Notes: generated from the sequence alone by a model not told the origin. Positions 21,388-60,968 are shown, counted from the first letter of the stretch. The stretch is DNA of 64,000 nucleotides from Candidatus Obscuribacteraceae bacterium (GCA_044226015.1 JBGAHS010000004.1:608001-672000); one strand, 5' to 3'. Translations and numbers: made by a program.

Positions 21388-21799
21388 GCTTGCGTAGATA
21401 AACACGAATCCGAACTGAAGCGGTACCGTTTGAGCAGTGGAACAGAAGCGGTACCGATTGCGTTGTGATTTGCCCTTGGCAGAAAAACCGTATGTGTAAG
21501 AAAACTGCTTGCGTAGATAAACACGAATCCGAACTGAAGCGGTACCGATTGAGCAGTGGAACTGAAGCGGTACCGCTTGCGTTGTGATTTGCCCTTGGCA
21601 GAAAAAACGTATGTGTAAGAAAACTGCTTGCGTAGATAAACACGAATCCGAACTGAAGCGGTACCGTTTGAGCAGTGGAACAGAAGCGGTACCGTTTGCG
21701 TTGTGATTTGCCCTTGGCAGAAAAAACGTATGAGTAGAAAAATCGCTTACGCACCTAAACATGAATCCGAACTGAAGCGGTACCGATTGCGTTGTGATT
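21388..21799. repeat. 119-bp tandem array (~3.4 units), two CGGTACCG-core motifs per unit
   Basis: GGTACC at 21422, 21541, 21660, 21779 and at 21450, 21569, 21688 (period 119, internal offset 28). Confidence 0.95.
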
Positions 21800-21818
21800 C
21801 GCTCTAGTCCGGAAAAAC

Positions 21819-22811
21819 CTAGTTTCGGAGGTCCGCTGTACTCGCTCGTAATCGATCGCGCCAATAATTCAGCAAATCCTCTATCATCTGTTCGAATGTG
21901 TATTCTGGCTTCCACCCGGTGCAAGCTCGAAATTTCGAACTATCGCCTTCCAGCAACGGTACATCGCTTGGACGTAATCTTTCGGGATCAAGTTCAATCT
22001 GAATTTTCTTTGTGGATAGGCTCAATAGATAATCAACCAGTTCTTGTACGCTTCGACTCTGCCCGCTGGCGAGTACGTATGCTTCGCCGGGGTTGCAATG
22101 GTGCACTGCAAGCCAGTAGGCGCGAACTATGTCGCGAACGTCTGTCCAATCACGTTTAGCTGTTAGATTGCCAACTTTCAAAACTGGTTCGCGCAAACCA
22201 AGTTCGATTTCAGCGATTTGTTTTGCAAAGTTGCTAGTGACGAAGACTTCGCCGCGTCGCGGACCTTCGTGATTGAAGGTTCTCGTCCTAATAATTTTCA
22301 TGCCATAGCTTGCCCAGTACTGATATCCCATCATGTCTTGGGTTACTTTGCTTACTCCATACGGGCTGAGTGGGCGAAGTTCATTGCTTTCATTGATAGG
22401 CAACTCATGTTCCTTTACCATTCCGTACTCTTCTGAACTGCAAGCGAGTTGAATAACGGGTTCAAGACCGCTGAATCTAATTGCCTCAAGAAGATTCAAC
22501 TGCATCATCATATTGTCGGTAAGCGTTGCAGCCGGACTGCGCCAGGATTCAGGGACGTATGATTGTGCAGCAAGGTGAAAAACCATGTCAGGTTTTATGC
22601 GTTCTATGGTTTGGATAACTGCTGATGCATCCATTAGGTTGCAATCGACAAGCTCGATCTTATCCGCCAAATGCTTAACGTTGGCTAATGAGCTTCTCCA
22701 TCGCTTCGTCCCGAAAATTCTACTCTCACTGCTTTCTTTCAAAATAAAGTCGGCTAAGTGCGAGCCCGCCATGCCGGTTATTCCAGTGATAATGATATTT
22801 TTGCTAGCCAT
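21819..22811 (-). CDS. GDP-mannose 4,6-dehydratase-like extended SDR (Gmd/Rmd family)
   Basis: ITGITGMAGSHL, HLAAQSYV, SSEEYG, SPYGVSK (YxxxK), FNHEGPRRGEVFVT, RDWTDVRD, RLRPSDV. Confidence 0.9.
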   Translation of the reverse strand: MASKNIIITGITGMAGSHLADFILKESSESRIFGTKRWRSSLANVKHLADKIELVDCNLMDASAVIQTIERIKPDMVFHLAAQSYVPESWRSPAATLTDNMMMQLNLLEAIRFSGLEPVIQLACSSEEYGMVKEHELPINESNELRPLSPYGVSKVTQDMMGYQYWASYGMKIIRTRTFNHEGPRRGEVFVTSNFAKQIAEIELGLREPVLKVGNLTAKRDWTDVRDIVRAYWLAVHHCNPGEAYVLASGQSRSVQELVDYLLSLSTKKIQIELDPERLRPSDVPLLEGDSSKFRACTGWKPEYTFEQMIEDLLNYWRDRLRASTADLRN

Positions 22812-23005
22812 GGATAGAGTTTCTGATCGGTAGGTCTTGGGGTATTCAAAAATTCTCTCTTAGCATAAAACCATAAAACAGCTTGACCTGACCCCATTGT
22901 TTTCTGCGTGAAAGCTAACTTTTCGCTTATACAGCTTCTCATCTTGTTATCTGACAAAAATTATTTGGAGGCAGATGCGATACTAAAAGTAATGAACAGA
23001 TAAGT

Positions 23006-25441
23006 GTGTGTATGTTATCGGCTTCCAAGAATGGTGTTAATGTCATAGGCTTTTTGTCTACGACCAATGGAATTGGTCAGGCGGCGCGTGGCTATGCAAG
23101 AGCCTTCCAAAAACTATCCTGGAATGTGCAGTGTGGCGATATTTCTCTGACACCAGACACTCAAGAGCCTCTCGATTTCGAAACTCTTGATCCAAAGTCA
23201 GCTTCTAATCTGAATCTTATTGTTGCTAATCCTTTTCCAGTACAAATCTACGACATTGACAAACGGCTTGGATTTGACCTGCTAAAGCGTTCCTACAACA
23301 TTGGTTCTTGGTGGTGGGAAATTGATTCACCACCGCCTATGTCTTGGCATAAAGGTGCAGCAATATTCGATGAAATTTGGGCAGGCACAGATTTCGTCAA
23401 AAGCATTTTTGAGAAAAATTTTGAATTGCCAGTAAAAACGGTGCCACCACTGGTAGAGCTTTTCCCGAAAGCAAATTGTACGCGAGACCATTTTTCATGG
23501 GGAGAGGACGAAACAATTTTTCTGTTCCTCTGTGATTTTTTCAGCATTGCAGAGCGAAAGAATCCACTTAATTTGATAAAGGCATTTCGTTCGGCGTTTA
23601 GTAAGGACGAAAAAGCTCGACTTGTAATCAAAGTCATAAATGAAGCCGCGGATCTCCAATACTGGCAGGCAATGAGAGACGCCTGTGGCGATGCCAGGAT
23701 CTCGCTTGTAAACAAGAAACTGAGTCGTACAGATGTTGATAGCATGATGAATCTGGCAGATTGCTATGTCTCTTTGCACCGTGCCGAAGGTTTTGGTCTC
23801 ACCCTTGCTGAGTCTATGCTTGGTGCCAAGCCAGTTATAGCTACTGGTTACTCGGGCAACATGGACTTCATGAGTGAGGACAATTCCTATCTTGTTCCGT
23901 ACGAACTGGTAGAGATAGATCGTGAACACCGTCCGTACTCAAAAGGAAGCATCTGGGCTGAGCCGGATCCATTAATTGCGGGGCAATTGATGCGAGAGGT
24001 TTTTGAAAACCCTGAACGCGCAAGAGCCAAAGGGGAAAAAGCTCGCGAAGTCATTCGACAAAAATACTCATCGCAAGCTATTGCCGCAAGAATCAATGAG
24101 CTGGTTTCAGAAACGGATTATTCAATGTCTACAGGACGGTTTGGTAGAGCTGTGATGAACTTCAGCAGCTTCGAGCCGATAGTTGAAGAACGTGAGATTG
24201 TGCCTGATGTTCCGTTTGATCAGTCCGAAGCGGGTCTCGTTTCTGTCTGCTTACCTGTGTTTAACGGGAAGGATTATTTAAGAGAATCCGTAGAAAGCGT
24301 GCTTGCTCAGACCTACGACAATTTTGAGTTGTTGATTTCTGATGACGGTTCCACTGATGGTTCCTTGGAGATAATAAAAGGGTTTGCCCAAAAAGATAAA
24401 AGAATAAAATTCTGGCAGAACAAAACTCGTCTTGGTTTGTTCGAGAATTACAATCGCTGTATGCAAGTCGCCCGGGGCGAGTTTATAAAACCCTTTGCGC
24501 AGGATGATGTTCTGGATTCGAAGTTTCTCGGAAGAGCCGTGACGGCATTGCGTGCCGATCGCAATATCTCTCTTTTTGCGTCGCGTCGAGGGTTTATAAA
24601 CGAGGTCAACAATAAGTTGCAATCGGAAGATCTTGATCGTGCATATCGCTCCAAAATAGATCACGATGTTCCTGTGTCTGGATTCATGGCTGTGAAGCAG
24701 TGTTTCTTTCCTGTGATGAACAAGATTGGAGAGCCTGCAACTGTTATGTTTAGACGAGAATTTATTGGTGCTGGTTTTGATTCTTCTTTTCACCATACAG
24801 GAGATCTCGATTACTGGTTTCGACTTTTGCGAAATGGAAATTTCTTCGGAACCAGTGATGTGCTCTGCTATTTCCGTATGCATGGTTCATCGACAAGTAT
24901 CGGCAATATCAAGTCGCTGCTTTTTGCCCTCGATTTGATACGGCTCGGACGCAAGCATGAAATTACGCTAAAAAGAATGAAGCGATCGGTTGATGAATAT
25001 ATGGCACAAGAGCTAGCCAACATCGCGGGTGCTGTGCAAAATCTGACCGAGGGGGACTTGTTTTTTGGTGCTCAGGAGATAAGCAATTCCGGAAAGCATA
25101 TTGATCCGATAGAGTTTCGTGAACTTGCATTTCTGGCGTTCAGGCGCCCGGGACCGCCACCTTCACTGTACAAAGTTCTTTCGAAAATCGAGCCGCTTGA
25201 GCAAGAAATTCGTACTCTTTTGTCCAGTCCTAGTTGGAAGATTACGAAGCCATTACGTGATTTCAAAAAACGTTTTTTGTCGTCGGGAGCGCCTGAAATC
25301 ATCGGTGTTGATGAGGCTGCAGAATACGAAGCGTTCGATGAGCATGATTATTTTCTCTACCTCGCATCGTTGCGTACTGCGATTCTAAGCAGTGGTTCGT
25401 GGTCGATCACTTATCCACTTCGAAAGCTAAAAATTCTTTAG
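23006..25441 (+). CDS. Fused GT4-like plus GT2 glycosyltransferase
   Basis: ERKNP..YVSLHRAEGFGLTLAESM..PVIATGYSGNMDF (GT4-like); VSVCLPVFNG..ISDDGSTDGS..FAQDD (GT2); C-terminal SPSWKITKPLR and SGSWSITYPLR. Confidence 0.9.
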   Translation: MCMLSASKNGVNVIGFLSTTNGIGQAARGYARAFQKLSWNVQCGDISLTPDTQEPLDFETLDPKSASNLNLIVANPFPVQIYDIDKRLGFDLLKRSYNIGSWWWEIDSPPPMSWHKGAAIFDEIWAGTDFVKSIFEKNFELPVKTVPPLVELFPKANCTRDHFSWGEDETIFLFLCDFFSIAERKNPLNLIKAFRSAFSKDEKARLVIKVINEAADLQYWQAMRDACGDARISLVNKKLSRTDVDSMMNLADCYVSLHRAEGFGLTLAESMLGAKPVIATGYSGNMDFMSEDNSYLVPYELVEIDREHRPYSKGSIWAEPDPLIAGQLMREVFENPERARAKGEKAREVIRQKYSSQAIAARINELVSETDYSMSTGRFGRAVMNFSSFEPIVEEREIVPDVPFDQSEAGLVSVCLPVFNGKDYLRESVESVLAQTYDNFELLISDDGSTDGSLEIIKGFAQKDKRIKFWQNKTRLGLFENYNRCMQVARGEFIKPFAQDDVLDSKFLGRAVTALRADRNISLFASRRGFINEVNNKLQSEDLDRAYRSKIDHDVPVSGFMAVKQCFFPVMNKIGEPATVMFRREFIGAGFDSSFHHTGDLDYWFRLLRNGNFFGTSDVLCYFRMHGSSTSIGNIKSLLFALDLIRLGRKHEITLKRMKRSVDEYMAQELANIAGAVQNLTEGDLFFGAQEISNSGKHIDPIEFRELAFLAFRRPGPPPSLYKVLSKIEPLEQEIRTLLSSPSWKITKPLRDFKKRFLSSGAPEIIGVDEAAEYEAFDEHDYFLYLASLRTAILSSGSWSITYPLRKLKIL

Positions 25442-25562: not shown

Positions 25563-26350
25563 CGGTAGCGTTTTAGTTTCCGGGAAAATCTGCGCGCCTT
25601 GTGGCGCAGAAAAACAGGAGAACTAAACCGGTACCGTTTGAGTTTCCGGGAAAATCTGCGCGCCTTGTGGCGTAGAAAAACAGGAGAACTAAACCGGTAC
25701 CGTTTGAGTTTCCGGGAAAATCTGCGCGCCTTTGGGTGCAGAAAAACAGGAGAACTAAACCGGTACCGTTTGAGTTTCCGGGAAAATCTGCGCGCCTTGT
25801 GGCGCAGAAAAACAAGAGAACTAAACCGGTACCGTTTGAGCTTCCGGGAAAATCTGCGCGCCTTGTGGTGCAGAAAAACAAGAGAACTAAACCGTTACCG
25901 TTTGAGTTTCCGGGAAATCTGCGCGCCTTGTGGCGCAGAAAAACAAGAGAACTAAACCGTTACCGTTTGAGTTTCCGGGAAAATCTGCGCGCCTTGTGGC
26001 GCAGAAAAACAGGAGAACTAAACCGGTACCGTTTGAGTTGCCGGGAAAATCTGCGCGCCTTCGGGTGCAGAAAAACAGGAGAACTAAACCGGTACCGTTT
26101 GAGTTTCCGGGAAAATCTGCGCGCCTTCGGGTGCAGAAAAACAGGAGAACTAAACCGGTACCGTTTGAGTTTCCGGGAAAATCTGCGCGCTATGTGGCGC
26201 AGAAAAACAAGAGAACTAAACCGGTACCGTTTGAGTTTCCGGGAAAATCTGCGCGCCTTGTGGCGCAGAAAAACAAGAGAACTAAACCGTTACCGTTTGA
26301 GTTTTCGGAAAAATCTGCGCGCCTTCTGGCGCAGAAATACATGAGAACTA
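25563..26350. repeat. 66-bp tandem array (~12 units) with the near-palindrome AACTAAACCGGTACCGTTTGAGTT
   Basis: Unit GTTTCCGGGAAAATCTGCGCGCCTTGTGGCGCAGAAAAACAGGAGAACTAAACCGGTACCGTTTGA; 11 core sites from 25630 to 26289, three of them GTTACC variants. Confidence 0.97.
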
Positions 26351-26484: not shown

Positions 26485-29400
26485 ATGCGCGTGAGCAATT
26501 ACCGTAAAGCTACTGTCGGCATCGGTTTAGCAGCCTACTCGATATTTTTGTCTGCTCAGCTCGGTTGTATACCAGCGGCAAGCGCACAAGATTCGAGCAG
26601 TAGCTTAACAGGTTCTAACTTTGGATCCGTCCTTCCTCAGGGAAGATTTGCTAATCCTTCTTCACCATTTTTTGCGCCTTCGCCGTTCACCGAAAAATTA
26701 GGAGTGTCTCCAGAGAGCTCATTCGAGGGACAAGAGACTACGAGCCCGGTTCTCACTCAATCTGCTGTGAATGCTGCAGCTTCAGCCTCGGATGGAGCGA
26801 TAACCAATGTGCAAAGAGCCTGGTACAAGTTCCTTGAGCCTAGCTTGAATCTCACTCGGGCGCTTGAGGATGCAGAGCATAAGCGCATTCTCTCTGTCGT
26901 TCCAATGCCTCTCAATATTCGCGGGGGAGATCGCCGAACTGAAATCCGCACTGCACTTTTACGCGCGGATTCCAGTCTGGAGTACTCCTGTTTCAAAACA
27001 ATTTATGGCAGTTTGTTTGGACGCTCCAATTCTCTGATAATGAATGTTTCGGGCAACATCGTAAGAGTGTTCAATATATCGGGTAAGGACAAGGACGTTC
27101 TGTTCAAGTTATCGAACGGGCAGATCATTGCCCTCGGTCCAGGAACTGAGTTGATAATCTCTAAATCGATGGACAGTTCCGATTTAAATGTTTGCGATGG
27201 TTTGGCTCGACGTGGCTTCACCAAAGTGATGAAGTGCGCTGATTTGCAAATGGGGTTTGCGCAGTTCTCATACGCAAGTGTTTGTGACACGCCAGAGATG
27301 AAGTTCTATTTGTCACATCAAAGTCCGAAAATTGTCGCTGATCTCAAAACTATGATTTCGAAAATAGAAGAGCTTCGCGGCACAGGTGGATTTAAGTTAG
27401 CGCTTCTTCCCGGTGAGCGCCACCAATTGCAAGCTGAAGTGAAGAAGAAAGAGACCGCCGTTCCAAAAACTAAGATTGAGATGGCTGCTGAGCTTAGGGC
27501 TAAGGAAGAGAAGGAAAAAGCTGCTGCTAAAGCAAAAGAAGAACTTGCCAGACTTCAGCAATCGAAAGATGAAGCGAAGCAGAAAGAGATTGCTAAAGTA
27601 AAGTCTGACGAAACCAAGCAAAAAGAGATCGCGAAAGCAAAAGCAGAAGAAGCGAAGCAAAAAGAGATCGCGAAAGCAAAGGCAGAAGAAGCGAAGCAAA
27701 AAGAGATCGCGAAAGCAAAAGCAGAAGAAGCGAAGCAAAAAGAGATCGCGAAAGCAAAGGCAGAAGAAGCGAAGCAAAAAGAGATCGCGAAAGCAAAGGC
27801 AGAAGAAGCGAAGCAAAAAGAGATCGCGAAAGCAAAGGCAGAAGAAGCGAAGCAGAAAGAGATCGCGAAAGCAAAGGCAGAAGAAGCGAAGCAAAAAGAG
27901 ATCGCGAAAGCAAAAGCAGAAGAAGCGAAGCAAAAAGAGATCGCGAAAGCAAAAGCAGAAGAAGCGAAGCAAAAAGAGATCGCGAAAGCAAAGGCAGAAG
28001 AAGCGAAGCAGAAAGAGATCGCGAAAGCAAAGGCAGAAGAAGCGAAGCAAAAAGAGATCGCCAGACTTAAAGCTGCTGAAGAGGAAGCTGCGCGCTTAAA
28101 AGCTGAGGAGGAAAAAGCAAGGAAAATTGCTGAGGCAAAAGAGGCTGTGCGTAAAGCCAAAGAATCTGCCAGAGCCAGGGCTGAAGAGTTGAAGCAGAAG
28201 GAAATTGCTCTGGCTAAGGAAGAGGCAAGACAGGCCGCTGAGGCAGAGAAGCAAAAAGAACTCGCTAAAGCAAAAGAAGCTGCTGAGAAAGAAAAGCTCA
28301 AGCTGGCTAAGGCTGAGCAAGCCGCTAGAGCCAAAGCTGCAGAGGCTCAATCTAGAGAACTTGCTCGTGCAAAAGAGCAAGAAGCCGCTGCTAAATTAGC
28401 TGCTGAGAAAGCTGAGCAGATTGCCAAAGCCAAGCAAGCTGCTGCTGAGTCTAAGGCTCAACAACAAACGAAAGTGGCGGAAGCGAAACGCCTGAAGGAA
28501 GAGGCTGCAGTAGCGAAATCCCATCAACTGGAAGAAGAACGCAAACTGGCAGAAGCCCAGAAGAAGACGCGTGAAGAGACTTTGAAAGTTGCGCGAGCCC
28601 AGCAGGCAGAGGAAGAAAGAAAAGCAGTTGAGAAAGCCAGAAAAGAGCAAGACGACAAGATAAGAATTGCTTTGGCGAAGAAGCAAGAGGCAAACCAGAA
28701 AGCTGAGTTGGTGGCTAGGAAGGCAAAGGAAGATGGCATCCATGTAGCGCAATCCAGAGACGCTGCTGAGAAAGCTGAGCGTTCAAAAGCTGCTAAGCTC
28801 GGCGAACCAGAAAAGGCGCAGTTTGGAGCAAGCCCAGCTCTACGCGAAGGTGTGCCTGTTGCTAACGCAGGTATTACAGATGCTTCCGCCGCGAAGCGCG
28901 AGTCAATGCGATTGAAGTTGCTAGATAGAGCAAAGCATATGGCAATTAATGCTAGAGGAAAAGAGCAGACTAAGGATATAGCTAATTCATTAAAGGATGA
29001 GGAATCGGAAGGTACCCAACCTGTACTGAGACCTGTTCCTCCGCAGAGTAAAGCAGCTGTTCAGCAGAGCTCGGCCGCTGCTAATGCTAGTGAGATTGCT
29101 AAGGCACTTGCAGAAAAATTGAAAGAGAAGCAAAAGCGTATCGCTACGATTGGCGGAAAGGTGAAAGAGAACCTAGCCGCCAAGGCCGCGAAAGTGGCTG
29201 AGGCGACAAAAGCTTCTGCCGCTGCTTTGACACCGAAGCCAGTACCAAGTACTCCAGAACCGCCAATGGTGGCAGATCAAGCAGCCAGAAAGTTGCTTCC
29301 GCGAAGATTGCCCGGACCTGATACACCGCCGGCAATTGCACGCCTGTTGCTAGATGCCGACAAAGAAGAGAAGACCGCAATCGCCCTGAGGAAAAAGGCT

Positions 29401-29568: not shown

Positions 29569-29641
29569 CTTCCTGCTGCTGGCAAGATTTTGCGCAATGC
29601 ATTCTGCAGGCTGCTTCTAATTCGTGATGGTCTTATAGTGT

Positions 29642-29996
29642 GTGCTGTTTTGCTGCGTGGATGTTTCGAACAACGGTGTGTTCAGTAGATTGGACAGTGC
29701 GTTCAGTTCAAGATTATCTTGGAGTGCGTGCTGTTTTGCTGCTTGGATGTTTCGAATAGACGGTGTGTTCAGTAGATTGGACAGTGCGTTCAGTTCAAGA
29801 TTATCTTGTAGTGCGTGCTGTTTTGCTGCTTGGATGTTTCGAATAAACGGTGCGTTCAGTAGATTGAACGGTGCGTTGAGTTCGTGATTGTCTTGTCGTG
29901 TGTGTTGTTTTGTGCGTGGTTATGTTTCGAATAACCGTGCGTTCAGTTCGTGGTTGTCTTGTAGTGTGTGCTGTTTTTGATGATTGTATTTCGAAT
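29642..29996. repeat. ~87-bp degenerate intergenic tandem array (4-5 units)
   Basis: GTGYTGTTTT recurs at 29642, 29728, 29815, 29902 and 29968; each unit has TTTCGAA and two GTGYGTTCAGT subrepeats. Confidence 0.9.
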
Positions 29997-30930: not shown

Positions 30931-31064
30931 CGTAGTGCAGATCTTTGTAGTGGAGATCTTCGTATTGCGCAGCTTCGTAGTGCAGATCTTGGTATAGCAG
31001 ATCTTGGTATAGCACAGCTTCGTAGTGCACAGCTTCGTAGTGCACAGCTTCGTATTGCACAGCC
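30931..31064. repeat. 15-bp minisatellite (9 copies, consensus CGTAGTGCASAKCTT)
   Basis: Exact 15-bp phase from 30931 to 31064. Confidence 0.9.
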
Positions 31065-31179
31065 AGGTGTTTGATGCAATAGAACTATGCTAGGGGCATT
31101 GTTGTGACCCAATTCGATTTCTGGATTTTGTTGGAAGGAGTAAAGGCTACCGGGAATGCTGACTCCGGGACGGAATCGG

Positions 31180-31483
31180 ACGCCAGCGCGAAAGGACGCT
31201 GGGACGGAACCGGACGCCGGCGCGAAAGGATACCAGCGCGAATAAATGCCAGTGCGAATGGATGCCGGCGCGAAAGGATGCCAGTGCGAATGGATGCCGG
31301 CGCGAATGGATGCCAGTGCGAATGGATGCCGGCGCGAATGGACGCCAGCGCGAAAGGATACCAGCGCGAATAAATGCCAGCGCCAGTGGATACCCGCGCT
31401 AATGAATGCCAGCGCGAAAGGATACCAGCGCGAATAAATGCCAGCGCCAGTGGATACCCGCGCTAATGAATGCCAGCGCGAAA
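31180..31483. repeat. ~16-bp degenerate minisatellite (GCCAGCGCGAAWGGAT) with higher-order duplication
   Basis: More than 15 variants of RCCRGYGCGAAWRRAT; the block GGATACCAGCGCGAATAAATGCCAGCGCCAGTGGATACCCGCGCTAATGAATGCCAGCGCGAAA is duplicated. Confidence 0.9.
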
Positions 31484-31493
31484 ATTTCAATAC

Positions 31494-31772: not shown

Positions 31773-32256
31773 GTGGGATTCCTTATAGAGCGTTGAGAGC
31801 TATGGATTTTTTGATCCATTCGGCTTTCCGTCGCGAAGCCTCGTCAACCATTCTACTATGGAGCCAGCGAGCAAGACAGCAATTGTTAGTCCGAGAACTG
31901 CGCTTAAGAGGTTCATATAGACCTTCTTTTTTATTCGTCCAATTTCAGTCTAACAAAGCGCCGAATATAAACATCCGTAGAAAGGTTGATCTCCGCAGCT
32001 AAACAAGATTGTTTTGAGAGCCTAAGTGGTGATCAGAGAAAATCAGAAGAATGAGAGATCGATTTGTAGTCGATATCAGAGTGCGTTTCGCGCTGGTCGA
32101 GTTTTTGCATTTTCTGCGCTACAAATCCGCAGTTTTCTGGAACTCCTCCAATATGTCGTCGAGAGAAATTGTTGGAAGAGGATGTTCGTCCAGACTGGGC
32201 TAATCGGTGGTTTATTGATGTGATGCTGCCGGAACGGTTGGTTTTCTTCCCCCGAA

Positions 32257-32462
32257 GATTTTCTCCGGAACTGAAGCGGTACCGGATAGGATTTTCTCCG
32301 GAACTGAAGCGGTACCGGATAAGATTTTCCCCGGAACTGAGGCGGTACCGGATAATATTTTCTCCGGAACTGAAGTGGTACCGGATAATATTTTCTCCGG
32401 AACTGAAGTGGTACCGGATAGGATTTTCCTCCGGAACTGAAGCGGTACCGGATAGGATTTTC
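32257..32462. repeat. 33-bp tandem array (6 units) with GGAACTGAAGCGGTACCGG
   Basis: GGTACC at 32278, 32311, 32344, 32377, 32410 and 32444. Confidence 0.97.
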
Positions 32463-49473: not shown

Positions 49474-49506
49474 TTTGCTTTTGAGCTAGTCGATGTAACA
49501 GAAATA

Positions 49507-50856: not shown

Positions 50857-51127
50857 CTCAAAGTGATAGTGCTTACAAATCTAATAACGTAATTTGTACT
50901 CAAAAAGTTCAAAATTGATCGAAAAAAGTTTTTGGTGTTTTTCTTACAGCACTTGGTTCTGAATAATTATGTGATTGAAATGTTGGAAAAACTCTTTCGA
51001 TGAAGGAAAAATATTTGTACTTTTGTTCGATCCCGAGCAGGTCATTTAGCGATTGGTACTTAAAGGTTTTTCTGACCAGAGTTTTAGGGAATAATTGAAT
51101 CATTGCAGAGTTAACATTGTGTGAAAA

Positions 51128-53056
51128 ATGATAGGTGAGCTAATAGCAGGAAAATTTAGGATTGTCGAGGACCTGGGTTCTGGGGGAATGGGTCGCGTAT
51201 ATAAAGCAGAACAGATTGATCTGAATCGAACCGTTGCAATCAAAATTCTGCATCCCGAAATAACTGATACCAATGCGATTCTGAAAGAAGCCAAAGTTCT
51301 TGCAGGACTAAGAGACAAGTACATTGTTGAGGTTTTCTCGGTAGGCGAATTATCTGATGGATCACTATATCTGGTTATGGAGTATGTTGAAGGAAAAACT
51401 CTAAGTCGCATTGTTTTTGAATCAGGGCATCTCCCTGAAAGTAGGGTGGTAAATATAGGTTTGCAAATTTGCCAGGCTATTCGAACCTTGCACTCGCAGA
51501 AAATAATTCATCGTGATCTCAAATCAGCAAACGTAATCTTAAGGCAGGCAGCAGATGAAGAGCTAGTCAAAGTTCTGGATTTCGGTCTTTCAAAAAAATT
51601 CAAATCTGAACATCAACATAAGACTTCGACAGAAACAAAAACTGGGATGTTAATTGGTACTGTTGATTACATGTCGCCGGAGGTTTGCTCTGGACAGAAA
51701 GCAACTGAAGCTTCTGACATATATGCTCTGGGCTGCATCTTGTTTGAGTGTTTGACTGGTAGACTCCCTTTTGTTTGTGACAATTGGGTTGGTTTAATAT
51801 ACAAGCACCAGCACGAGCAAGCCCCGAAGCCCTCGACGCTACAAGCTGGGATAAGTTCAATTATTGATACCACTGTTTTGAAATGCCTGGCAAAAAATCC
51901 GTCAGATCGATTTAGCGTTTCTGAATTGCAGGAACATCTTCAAAGAATTCAATGCGGAGCTGCAACTGAGGTTTTGGTGTCAGGCTCAAAAGGACAACGT
52001 GTATGGATTAAAACTGTAGCTAGTATAGTGGTTTTTGGATTGATATTTTGCGTTGTTGCCAATATTGCACATCTTCGTGAATCTAGAAATCAGAATTTAT
52101 CAAAAGATTTAGTGATGCTAGATTCTCCAAGTAGAGGATTAAAGGCTCGGCGAAAATCTCTTGATACAGCTTCAGCTGGAACATGTTTTGAAACACTGAA
52201 ATCGCTGAGTTCGGAAGACCCTCAGCCTGTAGAGGAGATGATTTCTATATGTTCTCGGCTTGAAAAAATTGCAGTTAAACATGAAGATCTTTTTGTTGCA
52301 TACCAGATGCATGGAAAACTACTCAACAATCGTGATGAAGTTGTTGCGTGCTTTGAAAATGCACTTCACCATGCCTTGTTAAGTGCAGATGGGCAATACA
52401 CTATTGAATCTATGTTTCCTCTATACGGATTGTTTTCCTACTACCACCAAAACAAAAAAGATGCGCAGCAGGAAGAACTCGGCGAGAAATTGGTTCGTCT
52501 TGCGGACAAACAGAAAGTGCTTGCCTTGCCATCTTTGAACTGCAATTTTAATATCAGCTTGCTTGCTTTTGGAAATGATATTGGAGCATTGACAGAGGAA
52601 TCTCTTTCCGATTATTACTACAGGAAGGGCAATCTGAAAAAGTGTATTTTGTACGGTGAGCGAGCCATCGCGGATTTCATTGATGTTCCAGTCGACGCTT
52701 ACATCCTGGTTAGCAAAGCTTATTCGGCAACGTCTAGAAAAGCGCTTGCCATTAAAACTATGGAAAGCCTAGAGAAGCGGCTGGCAGAGGTGGAAATTGA
52801 TGTGACAATGTCGATTAAAGGTAAAAAGAAAAGTTATACCGGGCTTTTGAATGCTTCAGGTGGAAGTAAGCTTGTTCGGGATTATTTTGCACTGGCGGAG
52901 TATCAGAACTCTGCAGGAAAGAAATCAGAAGCCATAAAGACATACAAGAAGATCCTTGAAGTAGCACCTCAATTTTGGTCGTCGCGATATTATGCAAATG
53001 AGGATATTGTGAAAATCCTGAACAATAGCTGGTTGCATCTTGCGGAATTGATTTGA
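51128..53056 (+). CDS. Hanks-type Ser/Thr protein kinase with TM segment and TPR-like C-terminal region
   Basis: LGSGGMGRVY, VAIK, HRDLKSAN, DFG, GTVDYMSPE, SDIYALG; TM VASIVVFGLIFCVVANI. Confidence 0.93.
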   Translation: MIGELIAGKFRIVEDLGSGGMGRVYKAEQIDLNRTVAIKILHPEITDTNAILKEAKVLAGLRDKYIVEVFSVGELSDGSLYLVMEYVEGKTLSRIVFESGHLPESRVVNIGLQICQAIRTLHSQKIIHRDLKSANVILRQAADEELVKVLDFGLSKKFKSEHQHKTSTETKTGMLIGTVDYMSPEVCSGQKATEASDIYALGCILFECLTGRLPFVCDNWVGLIYKHQHEQAPKPSTLQAGISSIIDTTVLKCLAKNPSDRFSVSELQEHLQRIQCGAATEVLVSGSKGQRVWIKTVASIVVFGLIFCVVANIAHLRESRNQNLSKDLVMLDSPSRGLKARRKSLDTASAGTCFETLKSLSSEDPQPVEEMISICSRLEKIAVKHEDLFVAYQMHGKLLNNRDEVVACFENALHHALLSADGQYTIESMFPLYGLFSYYHQNKKDAQQEELGEKLVRLADKQKVLALPSLNCNFNISLLAFGNDIGALTEESLSDYYYRKGNLKKCILYGERAIADFIDVPVDAYILVSKAYSATSRKALAIKTMESLEKRLAEVEIDVTMSIKGKKKSYTGLLNASGGSKLVRDYFALAEYQNSAGKKSEAIKTYKKILEVAPQFWSSRYYANEDIVKILNNSWLHLAELI

Positions 53057-53155
53057 ACTTGCGGAATTGATTTGAACTTACGGAATTGATTTGAACTTAC
53101 GGAATTGATTTGAACCTGCGGAATTGATCTGAGCGTGCGGAATTGATTTGAGCTT
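53039..53155. repeat. 19-bp minisatellite (CTTGCGGAATTGATTTGAA), 6 copies, first copy contains the kinase stop codon
   Basis: CGGAATTG at 53043, 53062, 53081, 53100, 53119 and 53138. Confidence 0.95.
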
Positions 53156-53326
53156 GCTTAGCAGAGTTGATGTACTCGCACAAGTGGTGGGATCTCTAGC
53201 AAATCACTTTTTGTGGAGGATTTTTTTTTTTTTGATTTTGTAACTTCACGCTGAGTTCACGTTGTTTTCACTCCTGATTCACATAAGTTTTCTAGATTGA
53301 TTGTATGAGGAAATGGGTGTGCAAAA

Positions 53327-53791: not shown

Positions 53792-55555
53792 ATGAAGAGA
53801 AAGCTGCAGACATTTTTAATTTCGGCTCTTCTCAGCAGCCCCACAGCAATGGCTGAACGTGGCTTGGTAGTTTTTGCGGATACGAAGGACCTAGCTGGCG
53901 CAAAGGCAAAAGGTTCGATACTGGCGGATGCACTAGCTGCGGAAATAGCTGCGGAAATAGCTGCGGAGTCCGGGCTGAACTCAGATCGCACGACAGCACG
54001 ATTCGTCGTTTATGAGCCGCACTCGGAGGCAGGTGCTATCTTTCGCGGGACTGAAGCGAACTTTATCAATCAGGGTGCAGTTGAAGCGAGCGCGGGAGCG
54101 AGTCCCTTGAGCTCCAAAAAGGATGTAGTTAATCCAGATGTTACCATCTCTGGTCATCGGGTAAAGCCAGCTGTGATCTCTGCCAATCAAGAAAAGGATA
54201 CGGCAAATCCCGCGGCAAATCCCGCGGCAAATCCCGCGGCAAATCCCGCGGCAAATCCCGCGGCAAATCCCGCGGCAAATCCCGCGGCAAATCCCGCGGC
54301 AAATCCCGCGGCAAATCCCGCGGCAAATCCCGCGGCAAATCCCGCGGCAAATCCCGCAGCAAATCCCGCGGCAAATCCCGCGGCAAATCCAGCAGCAAAT
54401 CCTGCAGCAAATCCCATTACAAATTCCACCACCGATTCGAATACTGCTGGAGTCTCCGGTTCCAGTCCCGTGATTCCTGTGGAACCCAGCGCATCGCTCT
54501 CGGACTCTGTAGCAGACAGCCTCAGCTCGCTGGAAAATACATTATTTGGCAGAACTTTTAATTCTGACAAGGCTAGTGACAGGCTAGTCAGAGTTGAGCG
54601 GTTTGTGTTCGGTGAAGAGGCGAAGGGCGAGCCAGGCGTGCGATTGCAAAAGCTATTCGCTGCCTTGAGTAAAAAGAATCAAAATGGAGATGCATCAAAG
54701 GAAACTATTTCTGCCTCGCACTCCAAACCTCGTGGAGTTCTAGCCACCATAAATGATGGCATAGATAATTACAATCGCCACCGATTTCATAACGCCGAAG
54801 ATGATTTCAATGATGCTCTGGATATGGCACCAGGGATGCCGAGAATTTACGTCTATTTGGGCGTAACGCTTTTGCAAATAAATCAACGTCAGTCCGCCAT
54901 AGATGCCTTACGTACAGCTTATGAATTGGACCCTTTTGGAACCTATGGTCGCTACGCTAAACATTGTCTTATCGTTCTCATGGGCGATGAGGAAGTTCGA
55001 AAACGTGGTCCAAAAGACAATTTGAAAACGGTAAAGAACACTATAGATTCGTTGAACAAGCGGGCTGGTGATGAAGCGACCAGGCAGGGACGATTTGCAC
55101 AAATAATGGCTCAGGCAAAGCAAGCGTCGGCAAATGGTTTTGCCAGCAGTCTAAGTCAGAATTCTGATACATACAGCAGCGAAATAGCTTTGAGGCAAAG
55201 TTTTGTGAGAATGGATGCCATGGTTCAAATGGCGAGGGTGCGTCAGGAAGCGGCTCAACGAGCTGCTAATACGCGTGAGGCTGCTAACAATTTGAAGACG
55301 CAGATCTCGGCGAAGCTGATGCCTGGTGATGCGAAATTGCGCGCTTTTGGGACTACCTTGCACGCCAGATATTATGGAGACGAAACATATAACCTGGCTC
55401 CATGGTATATTCCTCGGGAGATGCCACTTCAGCTCAAGGCTCAGGCTGTTTTGCTACCTACTTTTTCTGCGAAGAGCAAATCAAAGAAACTAAGATCTGC
55501 CACTGTCAAACGAAATTCGAGCATAACAAAATCAAAAAAGTACAGGAGACGTTAG
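53792..55555 (+). CDS. Exported protein with NPAA repeat linker and TPR region
   Basis: Signal peptide [73 protein letters not shown]. Confidence 0.8.
54201..54415 (+). repeat. 12-bp coding repeat (GCAAATCCCGCG)n encoding ANPA, ~18 copies
   Basis: Directly visible. Confidence 0.95.
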
Positions 55556-55556
55556 T

Positions 55557-56345
55557 GTGAATAGAAATTTGCTAATAGCATCTGTTATTTTGATTAACCC
55601 TGTTTTGGCGTCTTTTTCCGCGCCTGAACGGACTGTAGACAACGATCCTGTGCGGATTCAGCAAGCCAAGGATCTTATTGATTCCAATCAAAAAATAGTT
55701 TCAAATGCGGATCATTATTTGGCGCAAGCAGAAAAGACAATTGCAGAAACGAAGAAACTCCAGGGAGAGGCGCGCCGGTATAGGAAGAATCTAAATATTC
55801 AAGCTCCGCTTCTTAGGGGGCAAGCTCTGAGTGATGCGAAAAAGCAATATAAAATAGATCTCTCTCAGTTCTCCGATCATGTTCGCAAGTATAATCTTCA
55901 TACATTGGATGTTCGAAAGAGTTATGGACAGTGCCAGGCCAGCAAGGCTGCCTACGAGAAAATGAAGAAGGATCTGTCTTTGCACTGTGATCAATTTCAT
56001 ATGAAGGATGTTGAACCGCCGCACATCTGCTTAGATATCGATAGTTCAGTAGTGGAAGCGTTAAGCGCTCAGAACAAGGTTCAGCAGCAAGCAATGCGGG
56101 TCGCACAGGCGCAAATGGATCTTGATAAAGAGGAAGCTCGACTACAGAAATCAATTAAGGAAACTGGAATAATAGATGCTGAGCTTATGACTAACTCCGC
56201 AATGGCATTGAAAGAGCAAGAACTTGCTTCTGAATTCGGAAGGCTTAAAGAAGAACACAGGCAATTAGATGTTGAGCGTAGAGCTTTGTCGCGAAGTGGT
56301 GTTAGATTCGGTGTTCCTTCGGTGAAGGCTAAGGTTCGCAAGTAG
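55557..56345 (+). CDS. Exported coiled-coil hypothetical protein
   Basis: Signal-like N-terminus, long coiled coil, central HCDQFH..PPHIC; starts 1 bp after the upstream stop. Confidence 0.75.
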   Translation: MNRNLLIASVILINPVLASFSAPERTVDNDPVRIQQAKDLIDSNQKIVSNADHYLAQAEKTIAETKKLQGEARRYRKNLNIQAPLLRGQALSDAKKQYKIDLSQFSDHVRKYNLHTLDVRKSYGQCQASKAAYEKMKKDLSLHCDQFHMKDVEPPHICLDIDSSVVEALSAQNKVQQQAMRVAQAQMDLDKEEARLQKSIKETGIIDAELMTNSAMALKEQELASEFGRLKEEHRQLDVERRALSRSGVRFGVPSVKAKVRK

Positions 56346-56516
56346 TCCGAAGACGCGATGCGAGATTGAGCCGATGGCGCGATGCGCGAGTGTGGTCCGA
56401 TGACGCGATGCGAGATTGAGCCGAAGGCGCGATGCGCGAGTAAGTCCGATGGCGCGATGCGCGAGTAAGTCCGATGGCGCGATGCGCGAGTAAGTCCGAT
56501 GGCGCGATGCGCGAGT
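56345..56516. repeat. 24-26-bp minisatellite (GTCCGATGGCGCGATGCGCGAGTAA), 7 copies
   Basis: CGCGATGCG at 56354, 56378, 56404, 56428, 56453, 56478 and 56503. Confidence 0.93.
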
Positions 56517-56807: not shown

Positions 56808-59800
56808 ATGCCTAGTGAGGGACCGGCTTGCCGTGAGCAATCGAGATTTTATGGAGTTCTTATCATGGATTCTAGTTCTACCGAAACACAAAATGGAAAT
56901 GGCAATGGATGCGGCAGCGGACCCGCTCCTCAGCCTTGTGCTTGTTGTTCTGCGCTTGCTCAACTCAGGATGCCGTGGTTAGATGTGGCTGTGCAACATG
57001 CTGCACCACACTATCCTCAAAATCCTAACCAACCATTTGCGCATCCTTATTCCAATGCATATCCGCCTCAAACTTCGCCTTACCACACCGCACAATCTTT
57101 TCAGCAACAGCCAGTATATGAAGAAGACGAGCCCAAAACCACTTTTTTCAAACTTCCTTTTCTAAGTGCAAAAACAAGCAAGAAAAGAAAGGACAAGCGT
57201 ACAAGACGCGTTTCTCGTAAAGAGTCTGGAGAAGTAGTAAACCTTGAGACACTCGGTGTGCAAGGCGGGGACTCTATACGTGAGGGGCACGAATCTCCTT
57301 GCGATCTCCCTTCTGAGGATGCTGACTCTCCGGATGATGCTTCTTGCAGTGAGGGACCTGATGATCCTGAAAGTGACTCCGAGAGTGCAAAGAAAAAGAC
57401 AAAAAAGCTACGCAAGTTTAACGTCAAGTTTGGGCTTCAAGGACTTGCTGTTGGGCTTCTTGGAATTATGTCGCCGGCTTTTCTCCTTGCTGCGACCATG
57501 TTGTCTACTCCAAAGCGGATTACACTTGTAACTCTTCATCATCCGGTCGAAACGATTCTGGAATTCTTGCTGGTTATTGCAATTCCGATTGTGAATTATC
57601 TCGTCTGGTCTGCAATTTGCAAGAACAGATTCAACCTTTCCCGATGGCTCATTATGGCTCTTGGCTCTTGCGTGGGCACCGGAGTACTGGTCGCTGGAAT
57701 CTGTTTTGCCGGGCTTTTTGGCTCACATGAGGACCTTGTTGACGCAATTGGGTCAGATTTCACAATGGGATTTGCATGGCTGGGTGCACTTTCGTTTCTG
57801 GCTGGATCCAGTTCTGCCTACCTTGTTCATCGCTTACGTCAGTATTGGGAGCTTCCCAGTGCACGTCTTAACGTGACGGTACAAGCCGCTACTGGATTGA
57901 TCCTTGCGATTCTGGCTTTTGCTGGGGCTGAATATCGCCCATGGTGTATTCGTATGGCACAATACAATGCGGTGTCGAAGGATGAAGTTACACGCAAAGA
58001 AGGTCTTAAGTGGCTTCGCCAGTTGAATCCGGAGAGAGAGATGCGCATGGAATGCTCGGATTCCAGAGCCGCCGGCTTAGCTGGCTTGTTTTTTCCAATA
58101 AAGTCTGTGCCGCAACAGCAGCTCTATTTCACTTTGACTGGAACGCCGTACAGCTTCCGTGACGAAAAAGCAACTGATCTGGCGTCGATGTCTGACGCTT
58201 ATCTGAGTCGGCACGTGGTGGGAGATCGCATTCCAAATCTAGAACTCGCTCGCTCCAGTTTGAACGGAGTAATGCACGCTAACACTCTGACTTCGACGCT
58301 AAACTGGACCTTTGTTGTACGAAACGGCACCTCGAGTGCGCAAGAAATGCGCGCTGAAATAGCTTTGCCGGTTGGGGCTGCTGTCACAGGCTTGAAGGTC
58401 TGGCGGCGAGGAGAGGCAGCTGATGCTTCAATAGTTTCTTCTGGAAAAAGTTTGAATACCGTTTCAAGCAATAGTGTGGATGGTTCGACTGAAGATGGCA
58501 ACTCCTCATCGAACTCCAGTGATGATAGCTCCGGTGAAGATGGCAACTCCTCATCGAACTCCAGTGATGATAGCTCCGGTGAAGATGGCAACTCGGGCGA
58601 ATCAAGTAGTAATTCTGTGCAGATTCAGCAAGGCACCCAGGCGCAGTATGTAACCGCCGGCAGTGACGTACCTGGAATGGTAACGGACCTTGGTCATGGT
58701 CGCGTCCTAGTTCATTGCTATCCTGTGCCTCATGACGAAGAACTCAAAGTGATGGTGACTATGGTTGTTCCGCTGAAGTCGGAAAACTCGGGTGAGGCTT
58801 CATTGATGACTCCTCAACTGTTAGCTTCGAACTTTGGTCTTGAAGGTGAACATAACCTGCGCTTGCGCTCAACAAGCAGGTTGATAAGCTCAGTAAATGG
58901 GCTGGAAATGAGTACGAATCCTAGCGGCGAGAGCATCATATCTGGTGTGCTCAGTAATCAGCAGATGGAGACTTCTCCTTTGCTAATAACTGCAAAGCGT
59001 GATCAGGCAAGTCGACCTTTTGCTGTCCTTGATAAAATTGCAACCTTTCATCATACACAAGAACTAAAACAAAAGGAGAAGATTCGCGTACAAAAAGCAA
59101 TTGCCGCTGAAAAGGCACGTGTTGCAGCAATTAATGCCAGAGATGCCGAAGAAGTAGGGCAGGTTGTGTTGATGATCGATGGCTCAAAAGGCGTCGATTT
59201 TAACAAAATCGTGAAAAAGCAAAAGCATGTTGAAAAAGCCAAAGTAATCAAGCCGAAGGCTATTCCTGTCGAGCCGCAATATGTGGTGGAAGACATAAAG
59301 AAGATGGGTGCACCAGCACCCAAGCATCTCGTAATTGTTCTGGATGGATCCAGTGGAATGAATGAGCATCGCCAAGAAATTGCTGATGCATTGACGACTC
59401 TCCCCAAGTCGATTCCGACATCTTTAATCGTTGCAAGCCAGGAGAGTGATAAGCACATTAATATCCAGGACCTCCAGAACGCAATGCCGAATCTTTCTTC
59501 TAAGGTTGGCTTTGTTGGAGGTCAAGACAATCTGCAAGCCGTAGTTCGCGCTGCGGAATTGGCAAGTGAAACTAAGGACTCTGCTGTTCTCTGGATTCAT
59601 GGACCTCAACCTACCCTGAATGGCGAGACTTATATAATCAATTCCTATAGTTCGCCTCCGGCGTTTTATGAACTACCTGTGGTGGCAGGAACTGATACAT
59701 TCGAATTTTTCCGGAATCATGCAGAAATCGGACCTTTTACGCAGGTTCCGCGCAATGGCAAGTCGGTTCAAAACGACCTAGAAACTTTCTTCACCAGATG

Positions 59801-60521: not shown

Positions 60522-60592
60522 AGTTGATGATGAACCTTGCTTCTTCATTCATCGGCTGAATCGTAACTCTTCTGAGTTATTCATGCGGAAAG

Positions 60593-60619
60593 ACCCTGCT
60601 TCGGCAGGGTTTTTCTTTT
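60593..60619 (+). terminator. Rho-independent terminator
   Basis: ACCCTGC-TTCG-GCAGGGT (cUUCGg tetraloop) followed by TTTTCTTTT. Confidence 0.88.
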
Positions 60620-60633
60620 CTGTTGGTGAAACT

Positions 60634-60968
60634 GGATGCGGAACTGAAACGGTACCGCTTGGGATGAGGAACTGAAACTGTACCGCTTGGGATGAGGAAC
60701 TGAAACTGTATCGCTTGGGATGAGGAACTGAAACTGTACCGCTTGGGATGCGGGACTGAAACGGTACCGCTTGGGATGCGGAACTGAAACGGTACCGCTT
60801 GGGATGAGGAACTGAAACTGTACCGCTTGGGATGAGGAACTGAAACTGTACCGCTTGGGATGAGGAACTGAAACTGTATCGCTTGGGATGAGGAACTGAA
60901 ACGGTACCGCTTGGGATGCGGGACTGAAACGGTACCGCTTGGGATGAGGAACTGAAACGGTACCGCTT
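60634..60968. repeat. 28-bp tandem array (12 units) GGAACTGAAACGGTACCGCTTGGGATGA
   Basis: Core sites from 60651 to 60959 in 28-bp phase; variants CTGTACCG and CTGTATCG. Confidence 0.97.

Follow-up and report, generated by a model that had tools for sequence, protein, structure and literature searches.

Palindromic repeat clouds centred on an IS1595-derived gene in Obscuribacterales-type bacteria: a possible local tether for the transformation helicase ComM

The REP, REPIN and BIME repeats are extragenic palindromes that accompany a domesticated transposase gene (there RAYT) located next to the palindromes belonging to it; the flavour of repeat differs from paralog to paralog, and the repeats form doublets and tandem mosaics 3' of genes (PMC3116915, PMC5581495). 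The system described here shares all of these features. Unlike the RAYT systems, as far as the consulted portions of those accounts go, its gene derives from IS1595 rather than from an HUH Y1 enzyme and lacks the catalytic domain, its repeats keep to some 100 kb round each gene instead of occurring genome-wide, and it carries a predicted link to the transformation helicase ComM together with a promoter motif that comM also has (PMC3116915, PMC5581495). A second likeness is to the neisserial NIME elements (dRS3/RS), where the dynamic intergenic arrays of a transformable host are built from a conserved dyad, roughly 20 bp long, with variable filler between its copies; there is no sequence likeness, the dyad defined there (ATTCCC-N8-GGGAAT) is not matched by the position weight matrix (PWM) of our motif, and the sections consulted describe neither a cognate cis gene nor regional dialects (PMC1797815). 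Like the AbaR islands and other comM-disrupting elements, the present system is proposed to avoid removal through lower ComM activity, but, according to the part of that report consulted, those elements break comM and act genome-wide, whereas here comM is intact and the proposed effect is local and protein-mediated (PMC11441513).

The window analysed is a stretch of 64,000 nucleotides from a Candidatus Obscuribacteraceae bacterium (genome G000, 92% complete). It contains 39 exact CGGTACCG cores, 38 of them inside seven loci and one in a gene (47394), against 0-1 in twenty first-order Markov simulations. When a copy is defined by at most two core mismatches plus one good arm, the seven loci hold 59 copies (7, 12, 6, 1, 19, 2 and 12 in map order). 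This is the total reached in the first-pass annotation, although its counts per locus (7, 11, 6, 1, 20, 2 and 12) differ at the second and fifth. The loci are a strain-variable 119-bp array of 7 cores that begins at the mrdA stop codon (21383-21789); a plus-strand 66-bp array of 12 cores (25563-26350), with the canonical unit of dyad and GAAAATCT..GCAGAAAAAC filler; a minus-strand, strain-variable 33-bp array of 6 cores (32255-32462); a solo plus-strand dyad (36645-36668) with a shortened canonical filler ahead of it (36607-36672); a 27/28-bp array of 19-20 cores downstream of potD (39724-40276); a gene-adjacent inverted doublet (49423-49474, cores at 49431 and 49459); and a 28-bp array of 12 cores (60634-60968), no strand being assigned to the other four loci. 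The array periods claimed earlier (119, 66, 33, 27/28 and 28 bp) were recovered by TRF, as was, by arm comparison, the better conservation of the left half in the 119-, 33-, 27- and 28-bp arrays (5.7-5.8 of 6 positions, versus 3.2-4.6 on the right).

Across the genome, the core occurs 298 times where 68 are expected, ranking second among 34,180 octamers, and a PWM scan returns 151 matches in 53 loci and none in the reversed genome. All but two of these loci (51/53) are intergenic, which upholds the extragenic character first proposed, and they occupy 20 convergent, 28 tandem and 3 divergent gaps against a background of 367, 1335 and 862. With 203 of the 298 exact cores intergenic and only 9 of the 151 PWM matches in called genes, at a coding density of 85%, the motif is distinct, as had been stated, from HIP1, a different octamer spread through coding DNA. 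A test for strand bias had also been suggested; no replichore or gene-direction bias of unit polarity is evident. Divergent gaps are avoided (3/51). Extragenic palindromes 3' of genes that avoid divergent gaps, and that form inverted doublets and tandem mosaics, are REP traits, yet the PWM has no terminal tag beside the dyad of the GTAG/CGTC type given in the portion of the REP literature consulted. The REP/RAYT lead fails on the enzyme as well: G000 has no match to Y1_Tnp/RAYT (PF01797), no TnpB-type domain was found, and the associated gene is IS1595-derived. Of the recombinases put forward for a search, IS110 gave two hits, both on other contigs, and none of 19 tyrosine recombinase hits falls within the window's cloud.

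The window motif belongs to a family-wide 24-bp dyad of Obscuribacterales-type bacteria, AAYT-NNAN-CG-N-TA-N-CG-NTNN-ARTT. Its exact GTAC form is found in 0 of 40 relatives, with one stray match in a wider contig search, and had looked species-specific; relaxing the dyad centre revealed the motif in relatives. The ancestral centre is ATAT/TTAA, which led us to give up a link with the Holliday-junction decamer known from crystal structures. Rfam gives no match in the window, and a CRISPR reading was rejected because the fillers are repeated rather than unique.

End-to-end alignment of units from 18 loci yields one unit of 65-69 bp. The 66-bp array is this unit itself. Its first half makes up the 33-bp unit, the dyad with a few further bases makes up the 27/28-bp units, and pieces of it survive in the 119-bp unit, so the earlier notion of unrelated filler at each locus does not hold for most units. 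Copy-number variation had been put forward for testing. Contigs of run X1, which may be the source, and of run X2, from a second study, break off at the arrays, run X3 has one additional 28-bp subunit at 21768, and run X2 has a joint omitting 166 bp (32262-32429); run X5, the one run with a small share that was used, spans the window only piecewise. One orthologous locus carries 1, 2, 3, 4, 4 and 6 copies, with local filler, across six related genomes, and the mrdA orthologues of 7 congeners have no array behind the gene. We read the arrays as tandem amplifications, made locally, of a 24-bp palindrome; they cluster round a gene at 49699-50847, which the first-pass annotation had overlooked.

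This minus-strand gene encodes 382 amino acids and lies 225 bp from the inverted doublet, which folds into a single hairpin (z -5.4) and is likely the master site of the window's cloud. Between the gene's stop codon and the doublet is a perfect hairpin with a 23-bp stem (49507-49556, z -11.6), possibly a terminator; several of the remaining paralogs likewise have long hairpins after them. Judged by its sequence, the gene is an IS1595 transposase derivative (BLASTP against a canonical transposase, E 3e-11) that has kept the zinc ribbon and helix-turn-helix (HTH), lost the DDE domain and gained a DprA-type winged helix. The zinc ribbon and HTH (about residues 1-130) are followed by a conserved RRS..HP..E stretch in the place of the first DDE motif, a disordered linker, the winged helix (about 236-295), an SRKYLQLYL helix and a C-terminal cap. 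The N-terminal module and the SRKYLQLYL helix are as in IS1595 insertion sequences, whose domains are described in the sections consulted (PMC8101967); unlike in these, the linker and winged helix replace DDE, the site lies on one side only, and paralogs are mostly 25-45% identical to one another, not near-identical. Among 54 family members, DprA_WH is found in 52 and PF12760 in 10, the ribbon having four conserved cysteines, while DNA_processg_A, the ssDNA-binding domain, is absent from the 18 families matched; the host has a separate dprA with that domain. Both fold searches of the model and a sequence search of solved structures matched the winged helix only, and the remainder of the model was barely tested by the former.

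Might the protein copy its own sites? A RAYT-like self-mobilisation, in which a new active site nicks and copies the palindrome nearby and the winged helix only summons host repair, would account for the strict conservation of R145 and S146 (invariant) and of H154, E158 and S327-R328-K329 (near-invariant) in a family with a mean column identity of 22%. The gene-adjacent inverted doublets are REPIN-like, the gene-plus-site unit has moved within genomes (from a quick tree), and in genome G001 perfect palindromes with locus-specific arms of 26-32 bp suggest hairpin processing. We nevertheless consider this improbable: the DDE residues and RNase H core are gone, DDE_Tnp_IS1595 (PF12762) is matched by 1 of 54 members, weakly (E 0.0056), and no fixed or defined element ends are evident at array borders. 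Among 62 family genes the site is upstream of 40, downstream of 12 and on both sides of only 1, which does not fit terminal inverted repeats flanking the gene. Nor do the repeats found round 20 intact transposase loci of the order, a sample covering part of the IS1595 subgroups, support the idea that IS1595 terminal repeats gave rise to the site; they do not resemble the motif.

Gene and site are linked, with one dialect per paralog. All eight paralogs in G000, including the C1:1138k copy, have a site within 0.6 kb downstream, six of the eight each sit within a cloud of their own sequence dialect, and the remaining site clusters have paralogs at their centres. Of 100 site loci, 53 fall inside the 50-kb surroundings of a paralog, such zones making up 9.6% of the genome; the test is partly circular, site clusters being where the family was first sought. 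Among the 64 loci that a paralog has within 75 kb, 58 show the same centre letters as the site belonging to the nearest paralog, whereas shuffling gives a mean of 21 and a maximum of 35. A further 27 of the 100 loci either lie beyond 150 kb of any paralog or are on paralog-free contigs, and no decayed paralog was found there. In G001 each of the 10 genes is accompanied by what is essentially a single long palindrome, and clouds are missing, which speaks against the linkage being general. Paralogs expand within each genome, as judged from a quick tree. Independent genome-wide searches of G012 place all 3 genes in two clusters together with 14 of its 15 motif hits, and each of four gene loci examined in G041 has its own dialect. 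More broadly, sites occur within -400/+600 bp of 51 of 62 family genes and of 0 of 62 control stretches, and at least two motif hits are present in 59 of 87 gene-positive genomes versus 1 of 16 gene-negative ones, that single exception carrying the gene by profile. Gene-plus-cloud arrangements recur in four other genera, giving gene-centred dialect clouds in five altogether. These data support the earlier inference of a protein that recognises the motif and of sites that seed local amplification. Of the trans-acting factor once envisaged to bind or cut the motif, there is now a candidate, but it looks cis-located and has no recognisable cutting domain. Its zinc-ribbon/HTH part very probably binds the palindrome.

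If the palindrome were only the gene's operator or terminator, with clouds arising by slippage and local gene conversion and the protein inactive at the copies, one would expect what is seen in part: sites 3' of genes that avoid divergent gaps, many of A-tract/hairpin/T-tract form, and G000 units descended from one ancestral unit. Such passive REP- or terminator-like repeats are a rather poor prospect, given that in five genera the clouds have the gene at their centre and share its dialect, that some copies lie within open reading frames, and that the variable arm positions in G000 mostly fail to pair (15, 30 and 16 of 58, versus 20.9, 22.2 and 15.5 when shuffled), while the fixed positions are kept.

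The gene's promoter-like motif, TGAACTTTTT-N12-CGT (50883-50913, minus strand, 39 bp before the ATG), which we take to be of the ECF-sigma type, is common to all eight paralogs, comM and yraN. It precedes comM in 26 of 26 genomes, compared with 1 of 76 control stretches, and 59 of 62 family genes; dprA gave no hit. The system also suggests that a competence regulon exists in this lineage, for which most knowledge comes from metagenomes. Residues matching the tested Vibrio cholerae ComM interface are kept (E278 at 85%, L279 at 63%), and a complex model of the winged helix with host ComM scored 0.71, the best of three controls scoring 0.00; among reference pairs, 116 of 157 solved ones but just 2 of 215 mismatched ones attain the mark used, contact agreement was 97% and partner pLDDT at least 79. 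The winged helix is therefore predicted to bind host ComM, although the pass may simply reflect its DprA likeness. The present protein shares the winged helix of DprA in the DprA-ComM-YraN pathway, as set out in the portions consulted (10.1101/2024.10.21.619469, PMC13663708), and its helix is modelled on the same ComM surface; unlike DprA, it has no ssDNA-binding domain, and a likely sequence-specific dsDNA module would tether the helix to fixed sites.

Our preferred explanation, which we hold tentatively and at somewhat less than even chance, is a competence-induced, cis-acting ComM tether that shields its own domain from transformation. The protein, likely made during competence, would bind palindromes near its own gene and grip ComM, keeping incoming DNA from overwriting a neighbourhood of about 100 kb. 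The gene would thereby gain drive, because carriers could not be cured by non-carrier DNA. New site copies from rare short-patch duplication would persist only within the protein's reach, and slippage arrays, with or without sites, would escape transformation's deletion bias and accumulate in the same zone. In the part of one study consulted, ComM loss impedes transformation-mediated deletion of inserts (PMC11441513). That the protein works in cis, and which way the effect runs, is what we infer, and the shield alone does not explain site copying, even into coding sequence. A further step, for which our confidence is a little lower again, is that the system represents a new class of selfish element: a dead transposase with a ComM-recruiting domain of DprA and a competence promoter, whose private palindrome clouds locally switch off transformation in gene-centred zones of about 100 kb, so that the gene drives, satellite-like repeats accumulate and several dialect zones partition the chromosome. 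The gene-centred arrangement was not found described in the literature searched. Elements known to fight natural transformation act on the whole genome, as when they break comM; a local ComM modulator addressed by sequence would, if real, add a new form to intragenomic conflict. Recombination rate would then be set for each chromosomal domain, and the regional build-up of tandem repeats in bacteria would have an explanation. Such a system would also provide dozens of natural pairs of protein and palindrome dialect for specificity studies, and a tool for protecting or exposing chosen loci during transformation is conceivable.

Tandem repeats without sites follow the genes as well, falling with distance from 12.0 through 6.6 and 4.3 to 1.6 per 100 kb in intergenic DNA and from 7.2 through 4.5 and 3.2 to 2.2 in coding DNA. 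G012 (p 0.0008) and G065 (p 0.014) show the same excess, G041 and G013 do not, and windows near genes in G001 are poor in repeats. This gradient fits the tether and, equally well, a local recombination hot zone, in which the palindrome-bound protein would bring ComM and the YraN nuclease to the chromosome, much as DprA loads ComM at D-loops, so that raised recombination nearby yields short-patch site copies and tandem duplications. The same gene-site, promoter and ComM evidence applies to such a zone, and it supplies a helicase and a nuclease for copying, which the protein itself lacks. Less recombination leads to lower GC at fourfold sites, and the lower values near genes in three of five genomes (G065, G012 and G013) fit less recombination there, not more; G000 (0.429 near, 0.429 far) and G041 show no shift. 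In the portions consulted, NIME/dRS3 arrays are proposed to raise recombination of flanking genes (PMC1797815), but transformation favours deletion over acquisition (PMC13663708), and more of it should remove tandem copies. We regard the hot zone as unlikely, though a serious contender; even if the effect ran that way, no system met in the literature searched has a domesticated DDE transposase serving as helicase tether amid site clouds centred on its gene.

Bounded site domains invite other analogies. CENP-B is a domesticated, dead transposase that binds boxes in the tandem arrays of satellite DNA, MatP/matS and ParB/parS sites are bounded to one chromosomal domain, and cyanobacterial SDR and mycobacterial MIRU are small dispersed repeats with deletion derivatives. 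The present system resembles each in these general features; unlike them, with no homology shown, it has multiple mobile gene-centred domains per genome and no ParB. A paralog and its cloud could form a matS- or parS-like domain in place of the absent ParB, as CENP-B does on satellite boxes: none of the 54 family members has a ParB match, ParB_N is found in 0 of 5 genomes (10 of 14 control genomes being positive), and SMC is present in 5 of 5. We think a chromosome organiser very improbable, in view of the promoter shared with comM, a gene number that varies from 0 to 10 per genome, near-complete genomes (G022, G011 and G118) with no full-length gene, and genes and clouds at non-syntenic places, for which reason a cloud position conserved by gene neighbourhood was rejected. 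Where a site lies inside recG in another genus, it sits in an unalignable linker.

The window holds 39 exact CGGTACCG cores and, with degenerate cores included, 59 copies (7, 12, 6, 1, 19, 2 and 12 by locus), in agreement with the first-pass annotation, which had put about 59 copies at seven loci; simulations of the window (n=20) gave 0-1 cores each. The repeat periods reported there are borne out by TRF. The fillers, which it had taken to be unrelated, proved alignable at 18 loci as a single 65-69 bp unit, and the short units in the window are deletion derivatives of this unit. The excess is genome-wide and copy number varies. In the source genome (8.19 Mb in 13 contigs, with only three N runs), where the window spans C7:608001-672000, the CGGTACCG octamer is seen 298 times vs 68 expected, and a symmetric PWM returns 151 matches at 53 loci, compared with 0 in the reversed genome. 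Convergent gaps are over-represented and divergent gaps under-represented among the intergenic PWM loci. Strains differ in array length, and the contigs of two studies (X1 and X2) end at arrays.

An all-against-all search of 966 genes from ten site-rich regions recovered a single gene family, represented in six of the ten. The source genome has eight paralogs, all intact; decayed copies were not found in it. The window paralog (49699-50847, minus strand) lies 225 bp from the inverted doublet recorded in the first-pass annotation, and all eight paralogs have a downstream site within 0.6 kb, often as an inverted doublet. When 100 intergenic site loci were taken by an ad hoc score, with 27 genic matches of equal score excluded, 53 fell within 50 kb of a paralog, a zone comprising 9.6% of the genome. 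Density declines with growing distance from the paralogs (8.8, 4.7, 2.9, 1.3, 0.9 and 0.4 loci per 100 kb), in a test that is partly circular.

A less circular test is provided by site dialects, which share the dyad AAYT-NNAN-CG-N-TA-N-CG-NTNN-ARTT and are told apart by their centres. Centre GTAC occupies C7 555-794 kb, C1 156-865 kb and C6 51-73 kb; ATAT, C1 1092-1207 kb; ATAG, C4 18-125 kb; ATAC, C11 1300-1387 kb plus the start of C10; and TTAA, three loci. Within 75 kb of a paralog, 58 of 64 loci share the centre of the nearest one (shuffles: mean 21, maximum 35). The two TTAA paralogs are nearly cloudless, that is, few site copies surround them. The 27 of 100 loci that lie more than 150 kb off or on paralog-free contigs, mostly of the long GTAC unit, count against a strict cis model. 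Long-unit GTAC arrays flank comM (C1:781416-782960), at C1 673-770 kb and 865 kb; these arrays have no paralog within 190 kb.

The protein family occurs in 87/103 genomes of the taxonomic family and 0/3 of the sister family, and was not recovered from 400 other phylum genomes, for each of which at most four candidates were scored; 685 representatives match it with E below 1e-30. As to the host, most of the nearest Atlas clusters are Candidatus Melainabacteria, one homologue is named from a Candidatus Obscuribacterales bacterium and three others are labelled Oculatellaceae; the host probably belongs to Obscuribacterales. With one mismatch allowed, the dyad pattern has 155 matches in the source genome (control 2) and at most 46 in other genera. 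Its strict ATAT/TTAA form occurs in 37/103 family genomes and in no control, and a looser form in 1/400 other phylum genomes. A site lies within -400/+600 bp of 51 of the 62 distinct genes whose flanks were long enough, with 40 placements upstream and 12 downstream, and in 0/62 control stretches. At least two motif matches are present in 59/87 gene-positive vs 1/16 gene-negative genomes, among which kin are not independent; in a profile re-test of five of these 16, the motif-bearing exception was found to have the gene, and four had winged-helix or fragment matches only. Across four genomes, 51 site loci fall in 27 near windows, 17 of which were originally picked for their sites, vs 1 in 40 far windows. 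Ten near windows picked by gene position alone contain 17 loci, and the 20 far windows of the same two genomes contain none.

Among individual relatives, all three genes of G012 sit inside two clusters with 14/15 motif matches, and in the single-contig genomes G065 and G041 the genes adjoin sites of their own dialect. G001 represents a minimal unit, with ten genes, one palindrome before each and no cloud; nine of the ten palindromes are perfect over 12 bp, and the seven measured have locus-specific arms of 26-32 bp. Perfect palindromes of ~52-64 bp, their centre fixed and their arms specific to the locus, lie 20-50 bp before the promoter in eight G001 stretches (L192, L196, L200, L204, L207, L210, L214 and L216). 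A quick tree of 39 proteins groups all eight paralogs of the source genome in one clade (SH-aLRT 97), the three G012 proteins in another (90) and six of nine from G001 in a third (99); the unit thus multiplies within lineages. The source genome also has a split rpoC (637-aa frame). That a paralog and its cloud replace ParB as chromosome organiser is very improbable, although ParB_N is absent in 5/5 genomes tested. In these (G000, the source genome, with G012, G065, G013 and G041; 5-8 Mb), SMC is present and the ParB N-terminal domain was not found.

Residues 1-140 of the family protein resemble a canonical IS1595 transposase (E 3e-11), the protein also has the helix SRKYLQLYL in common with it, and four cysteines are near-invariant. 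The first DDE aspartate is substituted, the glutamate motif is lost, and the middle of the catalytic domain has given way to a disordered linker and a winged helix. Of 54 members compared with Pfam, 52 match DprA_WH, 10 match Zn_ribbon_IS1595 and 1 matches DDE_Tnp_IS1595. No canonical IS1595 was found in the source genome at E 1e-25. That the protein itself copies the palindrome seems improbable. The structural model is confident (pLDDT 86.7), and the winged helix, the sole part matched in fold searches, is closely alignable with the winged helix of the DprA that the host itself encodes. As described in 10.1101/2024.10.21.619469, the DprA winged helix recruits ComM in V. cholerae and H. pylori. 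Residues matching its ComM-recruiting positions are retained (E278 85%, L279 63%), and ComM is encoded in the source genome and in 93/104 family genomes. A modelled complex of winged helix and host ComM scored 0.71 vs 0.00 for the best control; the mark was reached by 116/157 solved and 2/215 mismatched pairs, counts that are only rough for the alignments used here. With 97% contact agreement between runs, partner pLDDT of at least 79 and E278 contacting ComM residue 502, the winged helix is predicted to bind ComM, although resemblance to DprA may underlie this result.

A promoter-like motif, TGAACTTTTT-N12-CGT, which we take to be of the ECF type, lies upstream of 59/62 family genes. A PWM built from the eight paralogs gives 25 matches at a score of at least 20, compared with 4 in the reversed genome; those beyond the training set include comM, a UPF0102 (YraN) gene, dnaB, dnaE, xseA and an ECF-type sigma. 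Scores of 16-19, a range with a substantial null, are reached by radC, recJ, sbcC and a ComF-like PRTase, and the scan of the source genome found no match before dprA. Example places of the motif before such host genes are C1:783069, C11:678566 and C1:118243. Seven of 20 downstream proteins scanned lack a Pfam match. The motif precedes comM in 26/26 genomes vs 1/76 control stretches, and YraN is described in PMC13663708 as the partner nuclease of ComM. From these promoter sequences we infer a putative competence regulon of the lineage.

Starting from the observed gene-site linkage, dialects, domain make-up and promoter motif held in common with comM, we consider the following mechanism plausible. 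The zinc-ribbon/HTH part, as a dimer, would bind the dyad, and the bound protein would act close to its own gene; transposases often act near theirs. This DprA mimic, tethered at sites, would hold ComM there, and the gene, its site copies and nearby slippage arrays would be protected. Transformation is better at removing inserts than at adding them (PMC13663708), and loss of ComM impedes such deletion (PMC11441513); since deletion is favoured and ComM loss impedes it, the tethered protein would be a local shield against transformation. This is our best explanation, tentatively held. It would account for the observed repeat gradients and lower GC at fourfold sites, GC-biased conversion being general background here. 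From far to near the family genes of the source genome, site-free tandem repeats rise from 1.6 to 12.0 (intergenic) and from 2.2 to 7.2 (coding) per 100 kb. G012 (p 0.0008) and G065 (p 0.014) replicate this rise; G041 and G013, with four near windows each, do not, and G001 is repeat-poor. Fourfold-site GC (near vs far) is lower in G065 (0.459/0.554), G012 (0.694/0.721) and G013 (0.592/0.631), with no drop in G041 or the source genome, and could instead be lowered by imported AT-rich DNA. The window has numerous motif-free tandem repeats, coding and intergenic, that belong to this gradient (27567-28061, 29631-29947, 30931-31483, 33238-34418, 44450-44522, 50234-50308, 53039-53157, 54201-54415, 56337-56516 and 58490-58594), and the linker of the family gene itself contains a motif-free 15-bp repeat.

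At a single orthologous locus, six genomes of one genus have 1, 2, 3, 4, 4 and 6 site copies, which argues that arrays grow from solo sites and local filler. A protein that raises recombination locally would explain site copying better than the shield does, yet we consider it rather unlikely overall. Copies arising without any action of the protein are more doubtful still, and this reading, direct copying by the protein and the ParB substitute are all less likely than either the shield or local recombination. In-frame site copies within coding sequence occur in L041:1190-3022, L040 and L042 (recG, another genus) and in L237-L239; a variable linker of RecG, for example, holds two copies with a spacing of 108 bp.

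CENP-B, matS, MIRU, SDR and the ECF consensus are general background for comparison. Closest in way of working is RAYT-REPIN (PMC3116915, PMC5581495); unlike that system, ours has no HUH enzyme and its domains are gene-centred, and it therefore falls outside the class. IS1595 (PMC8101967) is the ancestor of the family protein, whose gene is no longer an insertion sequence; DprA lent the recruiting domain, and the protein is not DprA. Full-text searches, with most subscription journals outside their coverage, found no literature on this protein family or repeat. The observation itself is real.

Other repeats were also encountered in the source genome. A second REP-like solo hairpin (GCCGCCAGGATGGCGGC) occurs at 22 dispersed places (such as C7:295289 and C8:425467), and a RAYT was not found. 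GGGATCCG, its most over-represented octamer, recurs in unrelated tandem arrays of differing periods, as at C6:44570, C5:243921 and C9:39440. In two stretches of C11 (81-101 kb and 1239-1288 kb; L331, L332), a conserved ~100 bp repeat recurs at intervals of 1.6-2.6 kb next to Rhs-core-like fragments, and a small variable gene follows each one. Both arrays contain or adjoin tyrosine recombinases; they are probably orphan Rhs cassette arrays. Finally, a tRNA array at C10:356333-358584 packs 18 genes within 2.3 kb.
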